Assembly (NCBI GenBank): GCA_963704365.1
Contig: OY969899.1
Location: 1,009,806-1,073,805 of the forward strand
Origin: Parachlamydiales bacterium
GTDB lineage: Bacteria > Chlamydiota > Chlamydiia > Chlamydiales > JAJFMK01
DNA: 64,000 nucleotides
Direction: 5' to 3'
The notes under the pieces were generated by a model. The model was not told the DNA's origin. It was given only the letters and a program-made list of their open reading frames with translations, and searched no databases. Made by a program: the position numbers and the translations under genes. Within the stretch, counting starts at the first letter, position 1, and each line of letters opens with the position of its first letter. This document shows positions 729-12,016 of this stretch, piece after piece.

Positions 729-1046
729 ATGCAAAAGAAAAAACATCCAGATTATCAACAAGTTCTTTTTATCGACTCCTCTACAGGGTTCAAGTTTGTC
801 TGCGGCTCAACACTGAAGCCAAAGGAAACGGCTACCCATGAAGGGAAAACATATCCTGTTTATCCCTTGTCGATTTCATCAGCTTCACACCCTCTTTTTA
901 CCGGCAGCAAACAGCTGGTCGACTCTGAAGGACGTGTTGACAAGTTCAAAAAACGTTATGAGCAAAAAGCTGCTGCTATTAAACCAGCTGCTGTTGAACC
1001 TGCCCCTGCTAAAAAAGCCGCGGCTAAAACCACTAAGAAAAAGTAA
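729..1046 (+). CDS. rpmE: 50S ribosomal protein L31, type B, with Ala/Lys-rich C-terminal tail
   Basis: 105-aa ORF with the L31 pattern [41 protein letters not shown]. It lacks the CxxC zinc motif (type B). The tail is [25 protein letters not shown]. Confidence 0.9.
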
Positions 1047-1055
1047 TATCTGATC

Positions 1056-2128
1056 ATGCTCCTTGAAAAGAAGGCTGAAGAATTGTTGTCTCGCCTTCCT
1101 GCATTGGAGGCAGAACTCAGTAACCCTGATTGTGTCCGGGACCAAAAAAGGTTTCGGGCCCTTTCTGGGGAGCACGCCTATCTAAACACCGTCAAAGAAA
1201 CTTTTCAAACACTTCAGAAAGCTCAAAAAGAGCTCGATGAGGCCAAATCCCTCCTCAAAAGTGAAACGGACCCCTCCTTTATTCCCGTCTTAGAAGAGGA
1301 GATCAAGAAGCTTACAGAGCTTCTTGAGAAAAAGGGGCAGAATTTGAGACGCTACTCGTACCGCCCGATCCCCTAGACAGCGCCAATTGCATCATCGAAA
1401 TCCGTGCCGGTACCGGCGGTGAAGAAGCAGCCCTATTCGTGGCCGATTGCGCCAGGATGTACAAACTTTTTGCCGACAGAATGGGATGGAAATATGAAGT
1501 TTTAAGTGCGACTGATGCCGATATGGGGGGATATAAAGAGTTCCTCATGACTCTGTCTGGTGAAAATGTCTATCGTCTCATGAAACATGAAGGGGGTACC
1601 CATCGGGTTCAACGTGTACCTGCAACAGAAGCTCAAGGGCGTATCCACACTTCAGCCGTTACCATGGCAGTTCTTGTCGAGCCTGCAGAAGATGAAGAGA
1701 TTGTCATCGATGAAAAAGATCTGCGCATAGATACCTACCGCTCCTCTGGCGCTGGCGGTCAGCACGTCAATACAACAGACAGTGCGGTCCGAATCACCCA
1801 CATGCCTTCCGGCATTGTGGTGGCTTCACAAGAAGAACGGAGCCAGCATAAAAACAAAGAAAAGGCGATGCGGGTCTTAAAAGCTAAACTCAAAGAATAT
1901 GAGTTGGAAAAAAAGAACAGCGAAATTGCCAAAGCCCGCTCTGAACAGGTCGGCTCTGGTGACCGTTCCGAGAGGATCCGCACCTACAACTTCCCCCAAA
2001 ACCGCTTAACAGATCACCGGATCAATTACACTTCTCACGATCTTGACAAGGTGATGGATGGGCAGTTGGAGAATATGACAGGGGCTCTTGTTAAACATTT
2101 TTATCAACACCGTTTAAGTGCCGAATGA
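1056..2128 (+). CDS. prfA: Peptide chain release factor 1, split across two frames (-1 shift needed near 1329-1337)
   Basis: ORF 1056-1376 is the RF1 N-terminal coiled coil. Frame -1 opens at 1328 and reads [32 protein letters not shown], then the RF1 PAT tripeptide ([10 protein letters not shown]) and GGQ (SGAGGQHVN). The joined length of about 357 aa is typical for RF1. Confidence 0.85.
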
Positions 2129-2949
2129 AGCAACTGGGCCCTTTCTTTCAGGCAACTTGCGCTGTTCTTGAAAGCATCGGAATCCAAAGGCAAGATGTCG
2201 CCGATCTGTTTCTTCACACCTACGGTGTCGATAGACTCACTATACTGACAGAACCTAACCGAGAGATTGATGAAAATCTAATTCTTGATGGGATCCATCG
2301 ACTGAAAGAAGGGGAACCGTTCGCCTATATTGTTGGAAAAACCCCCTTTTTTGGCTGCGAAATCAAAGTGAACCGCTCGGTTTTGATACCAAGGCAAGAA
2401 ACAGAACTGTTGGTAGCCTTCGTCCTAGAAGAAACTAAAAAAATGTCAGGCCTTGTCGTTGATCTTTGCACAGGGTCAGGCTGTATTGGTATTGCCCTAA
2501 AAAAGAGCCACCCTCAGTTTGACCTTATTTTGATCGACAACTCTGAAAAAGCTTTGCAGCTTGCTAAGGAAAATAGTGAGCTCAATGGAGTCGACGTTGA
2601 AATCCTATTAGGAGATTTTTTAGAACCTTTGAAGGGTAGAAAAATTGACATCCTTGTCTGCAATCCTCCCTATGTTTCCGCCGATGAGTATGAAAACTTG
2701 GGCAAAAGCGTGAAAGATTATGAGCCAAAAGAGGCCCTTGTCGCTAAAAACCATGGTCTATTTTTCTACGAAAAACTTGCAGAGCAGCTCCCCTCTTTGA
2801 TGGAAAGTGGGGCAGAGGTTTTTTTAGAGATCAGTTCCGAGCAAGGAATTAGCGTCCCCCTCCTCTTCAGTGGCCCTGAATGGACAGGGACAAAATGTCA
2901 TCTGGATTTAGCTTCCCATCCCCGCTTCGTCTCTGCATTGAAAAGTTAA
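2125..2949 (+). CDS. prmC: Release factor glutamine N5-methyltransferase (HemK/PrmC)
   Basis: 274 aa with NPPY motif (VCNPPYV) and SAM-binding [14 protein letters not shown] overlap with the prfA stop. Confidence 0.9.
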
Positions 2950-2992: not shown

Positions 2993-4309
2993 ATGCAAAA
3001 CTTTCTTTCCCAAAAATTCCAGGGGATCTTTTCTCGATTAACGGGCAAGTATCAGCTAACGGAAAAAAACATCTCTCAGGCCGTACAAGAGGTCAGAGAG
3101 GCTTTTTTGGAGGCTGATGTTTCTTATCCGGTGGTCAAGGTTTTGATCGACAGCATCAAGGAAAAAGCACTAGGGAAAAAAGTTTTAGGAGCCATCAAGC
3201 CAGGCCAGCAGTTCATCAAGGCAGTACACGATGAGTTAGTGGCTTTCATGGGGGGTGACCCTGCACCGCTTAACCTTTCGAACGAGCTGAATGTTTTTCT
3301 GGTTTGCGGATTACAAGGTTCTGGAAAGACAACTTTTGCGGCAAAATTGGCCCGTTTTTTGAAAAAATCGGGAGAGGCGAGCAAACCGCTCTTACTCGCT
3401 TGTGACCTGCAAAGGCCAGCGGCTGTTGAGCAGTTGAAAGTGCTGGGGGAACAGATTGGTGTAACGGTTTTTTCGATTGATGGAGAAAAAGACCCCCGTG
3501 TAGTTGCTAAAAAGGGTTTAGAGTTTGCAAAAAATGGCAACCATGACGTTGTCATTGCAGACACGGCTGGCCGTCTTCATATCGACGAAGCTTTGATGAC
3601 CGAGCTGAAAGAGATCAAAGGGCTTTTGAAGCCTTCTGAAGTTCTTTTTGTGGCCAATGCCACCTTTGGTCAGGATGCGGTCAAAACGGCTGAAGCCTTC
3701 CAGAAAGAACTTGGAATTACCGGTTCTGTTCTGACGATGTTGGATGGAAATACAAGAGGGGGGGCTGCCCTCTCGATCCGCCACATGACTGGGAAACCTC
3801 TAAAGTTTGAAGGGGTTGGTGAGCGGGTCGAAGATTTACAACCCTTCAACCCAAAATCGATGGCCGATCGGATTTTAGGAATGGGTGATACGATTAACCT
3901 CGTCCGTAAAGCTGAGGAACATTTTGATAAAGCCTCCATGGAAGACATGGAGAAAAAAATACTCGATGCGAGCTTCACCTATGCGGATCTGTCCAAACAG
4001 TTCCAGATGATGAAGAAGATGGGTTCGCTGAAAGGATTGCTTGGGATGTTGCCTGGTATGGGAAATATCAACTTGGGCGATCTCGACGAGAGAAAGTTTT
4101 TACATCTAGAGGCCATGATCCTCTCGATGACAAAAGATGAGCGAAATGGACGGGTTGAACTGACCATGTCTCGCCGCAAACGAATTGCTCGTGGAAGCGG
4201 CACAGTTTTAGATGAAGTGAATCGCTTGGTTAAAATGTATGGCCAGGCCAAAGAGTTTTTTAAGAAAGGTCCAAATATGAAGAATTTACAGAAGTTAATG
4301 GGAGGCTAG
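2993..4309 (+). CDS. ffh: Signal recognition particle protein Ffh (SRP54)
   Basis: 438 aa with GLQGSGKTT P-loop, DTAGR, and a Met-rich M domain (MMKKMGSLKGLLGMLPGMG). Confidence 0.95.
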   Translation: MQNFLSQKFQGIFSRLTGKYQLTEKNISQAVQEVREAFLEADVSYPVVKVLIDSIKEKALGKKVLGAIKPGQQFIKAVHDELVAFMGGDPAPLNLSNELNVFLVCGLQGSGKTTFAAKLARFLKKSGEASKPLLLACDLQRPAAVEQLKVLGEQIGVTVFSIDGEKDPRVVAKKGLEFAKNGNHDVVIADTAGRLHIDEALMTELKEIKGLLKPSEVLFVANATFGQDAVKTAEAFQKELGITGSVLTMLDGNTRGGAALSIRHMTGKPLKFEGVGERVEDLQPFNPKSMADRILGMGDTINLVRKAEEHFDKASMEDMEKKILDASFTYADLSKQFQMMKKMGSLKGLLGMLPGMGNINLGDLDERKFLHLEAMILSMTKDERNGRVELTMSRRKRIARGSGTVLDEVNRLVKMYGQAKEFFKKGPNMKNLQKLMGG

Positions 4310-5762: not shown

Positions 5763-6414
5763 GGTTGTTCCTGAAAAGGAGTGGCGCCGTCTGAAAAAAT
5801 TAACGAAGATCGAGGAAAAAGGTTATCGAGCTGGCTATATAACTATAGCTGGCGTCGATGAAGCCGGACGAGGGCCTCTAGCAGGGCCTGTGTTTGCTGC
5901 TGCCTGTATCATTCCTCGCAAACTTTTAATTCCCGGTGTCGATGATTGCAAAAAGCTGCTTCCTGCTAAACGGGAAGCGGTTTTTAAGTCGTTAGTTTCT
6001 CATCCCGAAATCATTTATGGTGTCGGAATGGTTGAACATGATGTGATCGACGAGATCAACATCTTCCAAGCCACCATCCAAGCGATGTTACTGGCTATTT
6101 CGCAGCTGCGAATAAAACCAGATTTTCTCCTAGTGGATGGACTAAGCCTCCCCCACACCGATATCCCCTGTGAAAAGGTGATCAAAGGAGATGAGCAGTG
6201 CTTGTCGATTGCAGCAGCCTCGGTCATTGCAAAAGTAAGCCGTGACAACTACATGCAAGCCATGCACGAAAAATACCCACAATATGGCTTTAACACCCAC
6301 AAAGGGTACGCCACAGAAAAACACCTGAAAGCTTTAAAGCTATACGGTCCATCCCCTATTCATAGGCTCACTTTCAAAAGTGTTGATCCTATAGAGGAGG
6401 AGGCCCTTGTATGA
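5737..6414 (+). CDS. rnhB: Ribonuclease HII
   Basis: [14 protein letters not shown] catalytic motif and [10 protein letters not shown]. The start is uncertain because it overlaps the rplS tail. Confidence 0.9.
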
Positions 6415-9798: not shown

Positions 9799-10159
9799 AT
9801 GACTTATTTATCAATCGCAGGAAATTCAGCCGCAAACTTAGCTATGTCAGGCTGCTTTTCTTGTTTGGACAAGCGCAACGAGCTCAGGAACAGGAGATAA
9901 AGTCCGTTACAAATTAAATAATAATTATTTAGACATTGCAAAAACAGCATTTGCAGCGATAGCTTCATGCTATGTTTCAGATCGTATTCTTTCTGGCTTG
10001 TCGACTTCCCTTCCAACTGGTGTAGCAGGTACATTAGCTAAGCTCGCCCTTAGACTTTTTGCTGCTGAAAGCGTGAATAACTTCGTTAATGTGACCATTA
10101 CTCGCGGCACCAATTGGTACGGTTTCATCAGTTCTCAACTAAACAAAGCATCATCTTAA
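9799..10159 (+). pseudogene. Frameshifted paralog of the 10303-10620 small membrane protein
   Basis: ATG 9799 opens a 33-codon ORF that stops at 9898-9900. A second frame, open from 9842 to 10159, has no start codon. It ends ..FAAESVNNFVNVTITRGTNWYGF, which resembles ..FVAHFTINFVNDQITTAQNWSKGL of the neighbour. A strong terminator follows. Confidence 0.5.
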
Positions 10160-10302: not shown

Positions 10303-10620
10303 ATGTTGACTACCTCAAATTTGTTATCAACAACTGCCTACTTGTCCTGGAATTACGGACAAGACGTTTTAAAAAAATCAAAGAACGACGGTTTGGTCGA
10401 GAAAGTAGCTAGGCTTATCATTCCAGGGCTTACCGCTCTCTTTTCCTTTGAAGCTGCAAATGGGCTTTACCCCGTGATTGCAGGAAGAGTCCATTTACCA
10501 ACTGGCGGATATCCCGGAATTCTTGGGAAATTTGTTTTTGGTGCTTTTGTAGCTCATTTCACAATCAACTTTGTAAACGATCAAATTACTACTGCCCAAA
10601 ACTGGTCAAAGGGCCTTTAA
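10303..10620 (+). CDS. Hypothetical small membrane protein (105 aa)
   Basis: AAGGAG RBS 6 nt upstream. Two hydrophobic segments (LIIPGLTALFSF.., GILGKFVFGAFVAHF). Confidence 0.7.
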   Translation: MLTTSNLLSTTAYLSWNYGQDVLKKSKNDGLVEKVARLIIPGLTALFSFEAANGLYPVIAGRVHLPTGGYPGILGKFVFGAFVAHFTINFVNDQITTAQNWSKGL

Positions 10621-10658: not shown

Positions 10659-10769
10659 TTAAAGATCCCTAAAACTTGAAATAATGTCTTGCATAAGGTA
10701 GCCTGTTTTCTTAACGAGGTTTTATCATGCATCCCATTCTTATAGCTGGAACAGACTGTCTGCACAGCA

Positions 10770-11189
10770 GTGCAGGCTCTCATTGAATACAACATCTACT
10801 TCTTTCCCAAAAGTGCTTTAGATGGCGAAGATATTGAGAAAATTAAAGATGGGTTAGATGGCTATTCAGTTAGGCAAAAGATCTTTTTTGCTATCGCTCA
10901 GGTGGGCATCGCAACAGCTACTTATGCAGCAGTTGGCCTAGTTACTTATAAAATGTTTCCCCTTTTCATGCAGTTCCTGAGTGGCCCCCGTTTAGAGCTG
11001 CGCACTCAATCGATTCAAGGTCGCGTTGAAGTGATCAGAACGTTATCTCACTGGGCAGAAAGCTTTCCTAAAACTGGCGCTGAGAAAATGTACCTATTGG
11101 GTGTTCAATTCATTTCTGGTTTCTTGAGCTACAATAGGCTAGCTGAAAAAACTAGACCCCTTCTCCACCTTCTAACCAAAAAAGGTTAA
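10770..11189 (+). CDS. Hypothetical small membrane protein (start uncertain)
   Basis: 139-aa ORF from GTG 10770 with no RBS. It has a long hydrophobic block (FFAIAQVGIATATYAAVGLVTYKMFPLFMQF). A well-placed GAGG-N7-ATG at 10727 is in another frame. Confidence 0.55.
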   Translation: MQALIEYNIYFFPKSALDGEDIEKIKDGLDGYSVRQKIFFAIAQVGIATATYAAVGLVTYKMFPLFMQFLSGPRLELRTQSIQGRVEVIRTLSHWAESFPKTGAEKMYLLGVQFISGFLSYNRLAEKTRPLLHLLTKKG

Positions 11190-11200
11190 CAGAAGCACTA

Positions 11201-12016
11201 TCAAAAAAGGGGTGGGCTTGTGAAGCGGGTCTCTTTTCCTGTTTCTGGGTGAGGAAACACTAACGATTCAGCATGTAGCATGAGGCGGCCCGTTGGTTTG
11301 GGATGATAGAGACTATCTCCTACAATAGGGTGTCCTAAATAGGCCATATGGACACGGAGTTGATGCGTTCTACCTGTGATGGGATAAAGGGCGACACGGG
11401 TCATTTTCCCCTCCCTTTTGACCAGTTCCCAATCGGTTTCTGCTAGCTGGTCAGTTTCTTTGTGGGTCACCTGGAATCTTGGCCTTCCGCCCAAAGTTTT
11501 CCCTTCTCCGATATGTGTTTTTAAATGTCCCGCCCCCTTTAAATCTCCCTCAACAAGGGCGATGTACCGTTTTTGAACCTGTTTTTGTTCAAAGAGGGTC
11601 TGGAATTGCTCTCTCATCGATTCGTTTTTGGCAATCAACAAAAGACCTGATGTTTCTCGATCTAACCGATGGATCAAAGACCACCCTTTTCCTTGAATTG
11701 CTTGCAAAAGCTCTTGATCAACAGTCACATTGATCGGCTTATCGTAAACGACAAAACTTTCTTCTTCGTAAAGAATCCGTTTTGGGTCAAAAGCTATCGC
11801 TTTTTCAATAGGTGTATTAACAACAATCGTCTCGCCGCCAAAAAGGGGCCTTTTAGCCATCCTTTCGACCTTCCCATTGAGCTGGCAGGCCGATTGATCG
11901 AGAAGTTTTTTAACCGCTTTTTTGGATAGAGAGAGCTGTTCGGATAGGAAATCGTCTAGACATATTCCCCGTTTTTCAGGAGGAACCTTAAAACTGTTTG
12001 AGGAAACGTTCGTCAT
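11201..12016 (-). CDS. RluA-family 23S rRNA pseudouridine synthase with N-terminal S4 domain
   Basis: HRLDRETSGLLLIAK catalytic motif, KRYIALVEG, and GRTHQLRVH. Confidence 0.9.
   Translation of the reverse strand: MTNVSSNSFKVPPEKRGICLDDFLSEQLSLSKKAVKKLLDQSACQLNGKVERMAKRPLFGGETIVVNTPIEKAIAFDPKRILYEEESFVVYDKPINVTVDQELLQAIQGKGWSLIHRLDRETSGLLLIAKNESMREQFQTLFEQKQVQKRYIALVEGDLKGAGHLKTHIGEGKTLGGRPRFQVTHKETDQLAETDWELVKREGKMTRVALYPITGRTHQLRVHMAYLGHPIVGDSLYHPKPTGRLMLHAESLVFPHPETGKETRFTSPPLF

Follow-up and report, generated by a model that had tools for sequence, protein, structure and literature searches.

An interrupted prfA in a Parachlamydiales genome very probably reflects an A6 run called as A5 in a Nanopore assembly

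We analysed a window of 64 kb, by which we mean the whole stretch of 64,000 nucleotides taken from the Parachlamydiales contig OY969899.1. Near its start the genes follow the conserved order rpmE-prfA-prmC-ffh-rpsP-trmD, and the RF1 gene prfA is divided between two reading frames. Coordinates of the features discussed here are collected in Table 1. Frame 0 of prfA starts at 1056 and encodes correct RF1 through ...LTELLEKK, the last codon of which is AAG at 1332-1334; beyond this codon it reads 13 out-of-frame residues and ends at TAG. The -1 frame is open from 1328 through a TGA at 2126-2128, and its translation contains both the PAT tripeptide (the RF1-type P-x-T motif of stop-codon recognition) and the GGQ catalytic motif. 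Since the -1 frame is closed by TGA at 1325-1327 and frame 0 by TAG at 1374-1376, the change of frame must fall within 1328-1373, an overlap of 46 nt in which the A5G4 run (frame-0 codons GAG AAA AAG GGG) is the sole low-complexity site. A preliminary description of this DNA had reported the same stop, the same opening of the -1 frame and the same interval with its A5 (1329-1333) and G4 (1334-1337), and all of these are borne out by the sequence.

Table 1. Features at the prfA locus and CAGCTG sites at which the window differs from the SRR contigs
Feature	Position in window	Strand	Basis and remarks
rpmE (ribosomal protein L31)	729..1046	+	ORF; PF01197 on matching genes; directly upstream of prfA
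prfA 5' part, frame 0, 106 aa	1056..1376	+	ORF; PF03462 (PCRF)
-1 frame TGA	1325..1327	+	upstream bound for any frame change
A5 (1329-1333) then G4 (1334-1337)	1329..1337	+	putative missing-base site
prfA 3' part, -1 frame	1334..2128	+	PF03462 (PCRF) and PF00472 (RF-1)
prmC (release-factor glutamine methyltransferase)	2125..2949	+	ORF; intact; 4-nt overlap with prfA stop
ffh	2993..4309	+	ORF; stop is TAG; essential gene terminated via RF1
CAGGCTG in window, CAGCTG in SRR	9850 (9848-9854)		window-SRR contig comparison
CAACTG in window, CAGCTG in SRR	10333 (10330-10335)		window-SRR contig comparison
CAGACTG in window, CAGCTG in SRR	10755 (10752-10758)		window-SRR contig comparison
CAGACTG in window, CAGCTG in SRR	55945 (55942-55948)		window-SRR contig comparison

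Addition of one A to the run, which the preliminary description had proposed would restore the frame, yields a prfA product of 357 aa that passes both RF1 equivalog cutoffs (NF001859, 479.7 bits with a cutoff of 400; TIGR00019, 464.2 bits with a cutoff of 423.25) and scores under the cutoff of the prfB model. A tblastn search of the window with this repaired RF1 gave a 100% match at 1056-1289 and, for residues 94-357, a 100% match in the -1 frame part. The split is genuinely present in the window sequence, which holds no single uninterrupted prfA ORF; its reality in the organism is a separate matter. A 78-aa antisense ORF (1312-1548, minus strand) overlaps the break and lies wholly within conserved RF1 coding sequence; it is most likely spurious. 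On the other side of rpmE, a near-perfect long inverted repeat (ctctctctgtgctctctgtgagctctgtggt ... accacagagctcacggagagcacagagag) is present at 404-482 in the 590-bp gap 5' of that gene; its loop is rich in A. Window position 587, just past this repeat, is where four Logan contigs of different runs begin. The repeat may thus mark a break in the assembly graph or be an element that occurs more than once.

RF1 should be needed in this organism, as the preliminary description had argued from the TAG stop of ffh. TAG ends 13 of the 58 long ORFs in the window, one of these being the prfA fragment itself and the 12 others including ffh and trmD. Comparison of prfA with the sister species gave a dN/dS of 0.034 overall and 0.025 downstream of the break, and on this sequence evidence the gene has been under strong purifying selection. 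These observations bear on the reading in which A5 is real and prfA a fresh pseudogene, with RF1 either absent or supplied by another copy in the genome, which we consider very improbable. The split is indeed found in several assemblies, and among the RefSeq representative genomes 34 have a frameshifted prfA and no other copy, the status of which is unresolved (PMC12421855). Against inactivation stand the 12 other long ORFs that end in TAG within 64 kb, the intact prmC, and a gene with no decay that is one base apart from an intact allele; tblastn of the repaired RF1 also revealed no second RF1-like gene in the 64-kb window. The RefSeq cases resemble the present one in that the split is isolated, unconserved and free of frameshift elements, and sequencing errors were suspected by the authors of that survey behind isolated split prfA copies (PMC12421855). 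They differ from it in that here a second data set from the same strain shows an intact gene.

The best homologues of the repaired RF1 come from Parachlamydiales and other Chlamydiae, and prfA is contiguous in 80 of 80 related loci and in 120 of 120 homologues among the matches listed. The preliminary description had suggested a comparison of the length of the A-run with related strains. The closest species (90% protein identity) reads GAG AAA AAA GGG ACA at the site, and a JGI contig of the sister lineage reads GAG AAA AAA GGG GCA, that is, an in-frame A6G4 which encodes the predicted junction EKKGAEFE; among the relatives, L001 and L084 have A6G3. Since the relatives are in frame with A6, the allele of the window resembles A6G4 less one A. 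The relatives with A6G4 (L085 and L114) are represented by contigs of short-read style only, and no Nanopore contig with A6G4 was found. A scan of the JGI metagenomes with a pattern that covers both alleles (CTTCTTGAGAAAAAN{0,1}GGGGCAGAATTTGAGAC) gave zero matches, and the species is therefore absent from that collection. One of the two A6G3 contigs (L084, ENA ERZ25039528 contig_100603, sister species) is a low-coverage long-read contig with frameshifts throughout, in which prfA, prmC and ffh are each fragmented; it shows the route by which a C-terminal RF1 fragment (P0123) reached the protein database.

Other assemblies of the same strain carry one or the other length of the run. Exact look-up of the truncated 106-aa product led to a flye-style ENA contig of 2.6 Mb (ERZ25039480) and to short Logan contigs of ERR11594402 and ERR11630400; A5 is present also in a 45-kb contig of ERZ25039528 and in a Logan contig of ERR11523671. 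Gene callers start the C-terminal product at the ATG at 1457 (223 aa), and this product occurs on large flye-style contigs only, while exact look-up of the 229-aa C-terminal ORF counted from its first start codon returned no record. The intact 357-aa protein, also looked up exactly, is not in the protein collection. With rpmE as anchor for fetching further assemblies of the strain, look-ups on L31 and on PrmC led to Logan contigs of SRR34864986, SRR34864995 and SRR34864996 with a single, uninterrupted prfA of 357 aa, the translation of which equals the repaired protein exactly. Compared with the window, these contigs (L087, L088, L090, L091 and L099) show one inserted A and zero other differences over 1.1-3.8 kb. 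A6, which the preliminary description had named as the observation that would reduce the break to a plain assembly error, is thus what DNA otherwise identical for up to 3.8 kb carries in effect. In total, A5 is found in six of six ERR or ERZ contigs and A6 in every SRR contig that spans the site.

The assemblies are otherwise essentially clonal, with at most 2 SNPs in ~35 kb, although they apparently derive from several samples and two projects. Two positions are likely true SNPs. Position 18553 is A in the window and in ERR11563597, and G in ERZ25039480 and SRR34864999; at 10278 SRR34864999 alone differs. Both alleles of 18553 are thus found inside the ERR/ERZ set, one of them in common with an SRR run, whereas A5 and A6 sort perfectly by data source.

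The error signatures of the two sets of data were also compared. The comparison of the window with SRR contigs covers ~34.9 kb of the window. Apart from the prfA A-run, the two differ there at one or two positions that resemble SNPs and at four CAGCTG sites (Table 1). Of the 15 CAGCTG sites within these 34.9 kb, the window thus has 4 in corrupted form, and ERZ25039480 partly has the intact motif at these. Other ERR/ERZ contigs are corrupted at CAGCTG sites at 915-916, 6105-6107, 8719, 50832 and 55945-55949. In addition, T-run deletions break ffh in ERR11523671 (L094), a 2-bp insertion splits rnhB in ERR11594402 (L101), and indels are present also in L097, L112 and L084. The SRR contigs contain none of these errors and are mutually concordant. 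Both homopolymer indels and errors, including indels, at methylated motifs are documented residual errors of Nanopore consensus sequences (PMC12506013; PMC9262707), and the clustering at one palindrome points to CAGCTG (PvuII-type) DNA methylation that would confuse Nanopore basecalling. The small hypothetical ORFs at 9842-10159 and 10746-11189 are shifted by these indels (119 aa and 153 aa elsewhere, respectively), and the minus-strand ORF at 55922-57181 is shortened to 419 aa from 431 aa elsewhere.

Judging from these error signatures, the ERR/ERZ sources that bear A5 look like Nanopore data and the SRR runs like data from an accurate platform. The ERZ250395xx series includes contig_95753, which in the genome collection is a contig of the Microflora Danica MAG MFD04780.bin.2.176; the long-read MAGs of that project are Nanopore-only and were polished with one round of Medaka and without short reads (PMC12313526). 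The sequence CTTGAG (1323-1328), which we take to be the recognition sequence of BpuEI-type enzymes, stands directly 5' of the A-run and, if methylated, could bias the call of its length. Zero errors were seen at other CTTGAG / CTCAAG sites in the compared regions, and a methylated CTTGAG as the cause of a site-specific undercall is speculative.

A break that can be bridged by a -1 shift also raises the question of recoding. Set beside the zero-frame heptamer X_XXY_YYZ of dnaX-type sites, the candidate slippery site is G_AAA_AAG at 1328-1334, on which re-pairing in the A-site (AAG to AAA) is ideal; re-pairing in the P-site (AAA to GAA) is imperfect and depends on wobble or a mismatch at the first position. 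The dnaX site has AAA-AAG as its slippery core, which counts in favour of slippage here. Sites of the dnaX type are stimulated by an internal SD ~10-14 nt before the heptamer, by a stable structure 5-9 nt after it, or by both. In prfA the closest SD-like sequence is GAGGAG (1296-1301), the end of which lies 26 nt upstream of the shift site. The 90 nt downstream (1335-1424) fold with -20.5 kcal/mol as compared to -23.6 on average for shuffled sequences (z = +0.95) and thus no better than these, and a search of Rfam at the prfA site gave no relevant element, its chance matches lying far under threshold. The dnaX frameshift (A_AAA_AAG, with an SD on its 5' side and a hairpin on its 3' side) and the prfA site have in common the AAA-AAG pair and a -1 shift that leads to a functional product. 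In contrast to dnaX, the prfA site starts with G and not A, is without an SD at effective spacing and without a hairpin, and belongs to a split that is unconserved and that has an in-frame allele in the same strain.

It would still be conceivable, though we regard it as unlikely, that the ERR/ERZ population carries a real A5 allele, arisen through a very recent one-base deletion, and makes low levels of RF1 through unprogrammed -1 slippage of tRNA-Lys on G_AAA_AAG. Such slippage would fit the -1 frame that is open from 1328, since tandem slippage would give the native ...LLEKKGAEFE..., and RF1 should be indispensable where TAG is in use; the occurrence of A5 in six contigs from several samples, with every other compared homopolymer correct, also speaks for a real allele. 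The allele, however, sorts by data source and not by haplotype, and the site has no SD near enough, no downstream fold and no Rfam element. Because its flanks are identical to those of the in-frame allele, no feature that promotes shifting can have evolved. A frameshift in an essential gene that is fixed across several sites also has a very low prior as compared to a Nanopore indel.

An evolved event, that is, a programmed frameshift or transcriptional slippage regulating RF1 in the way of prfB autoregulation, seems to us hardly credible. The classic gene autoregulated by frameshifting is that of release factor 2, prfB, and its +1 shift (CUU UGA C preceded by an SD) shares with the present case a release-factor gene in which the premature stop is its own cognate codon, the frame-0 stop of prfA being TAG. 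However, the shift in prfA would run in the opposite direction (-1, not +1) and take place 40 nt upstream of TAG instead of at it, with no adjacent SD, whereas in prfB the SD lies 3 nt upstream. The split moreover occurs in no relative, an in-frame allele is present in the strain itself, and neither the fold nor the Rfam search produced a stimulator. Runs known to support slippage of RNA polymerase have ~9 A or more, and A5 is far shorter. The poly(A) transcriptional slippage of Buchnera and Blochmannia is comparable in that an A-run in a host-associated bacterium is concerned and correction of the indel would take place in the RNA; the tracts there are ~9 A or longer, unlike the A5 of prfA, which is too short for appreciable slippage of the polymerase. 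In a survey that covered more than 12,000 genomes, evidence of programmed frameshifting in prfA was not found, and a prfB-like frameshift has never been shown for this gene (PMC12421855).

We return to the error signatures. The break in prfA is very probably an assembly artefact in which a true A6 was called A5. The source organism would have a plain, uninterrupted prfA that reads GAG AAA AAA GGG GCA (E K K G A) and encodes an RF1 of 357 aa; the window would be a Nanopore-only metagenome assembly in which the A6 run was miscalled, and neither frameshifting nor slippage nor pseudogenisation would be at work. This reading is favoured by the presence of A6 in otherwise identical DNA and by the confinement of A5 to one family of data sources with other errors of the Nanopore type. 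The variant follows the source and not the haplotype, and the same assemblies carry further errors typical of the platform. At the moderate coverage of a metagenome bin, about one residual Nanopore indel per tens of kb is expected. Since residual consensus errors are systematic, and since a far smaller prior attaches to a frameshift fixed in an essential, single-copy gene of a population otherwise identical to an in-frame one, the artefact is to be preferred. Of the three options left by the preliminary description, a homopolymer sequencing error is thus strongly favoured through the A6 contigs of the SRR runs, and slippage-dependent expression and recent inactivation are unsupported.

Several observations count against an artefact. 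A5 is repeated in six contigs, three of which are raw k-mer (Logan) assemblies, and its recurrence in these demands a strong bias at the level of the reads. All other 326 homopolymers of at least 5 nt (125 of them at least 6 nt) agree over the 34.9 kb; correctly called runs for comparison are A6G4 at 11203, C4T6 at 20855 and C5T6 at 2342. A generic error of the A6G4 context was considered and rejected, other such sites in the window being correct. The prfA A-run lies outside any CAGCTG motif, ERR11630400 shows zero direct Nanopore error signature, and ERZ25039480 has A5 although it is a good assembly with one other error in ~35 kb. As compared to the residual indels of Nanopore-only assemblies (R10.4-type, Medaka-polished), the break in prfA is alike in that a one-base homopolymer deletion splits a conserved gene and recurs in assemblies made with one chemistry but not in the strain's other read sets, and in that it is accompanied by errors clustered at a single palindrome, CAGCTG. 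The differences are that the run is just 6 nt, a length usually called right, that the platform is here deduced, that other A6G4 and C4T6 sites of the window are correct and that the prfA site is outside CAGCTG.

At face value, the window would have provided the first case of a -1 frameshift needed for the expression of RF1, a case which dissolves on inspection. If A5 were genuine, an essential single-copy RF1 would be expressed solely by unprogrammed -1 slippage, and a 'savior' frameshift would have been caught at its origin beside an otherwise identical in-frame population. Conserved genes that are split in Nanopore-only MAGs should be checked in other read sets before recoding is proposed, and the contigs studied here hold many further indels at CAGCTG sites that truncate small genes. 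For this organism, the split of prfA is in all likelihood not a real biological feature and the gene an ordinary one; the genome and its sibling assemblies should accordingly be annotated with an intact prfA carrying A6.
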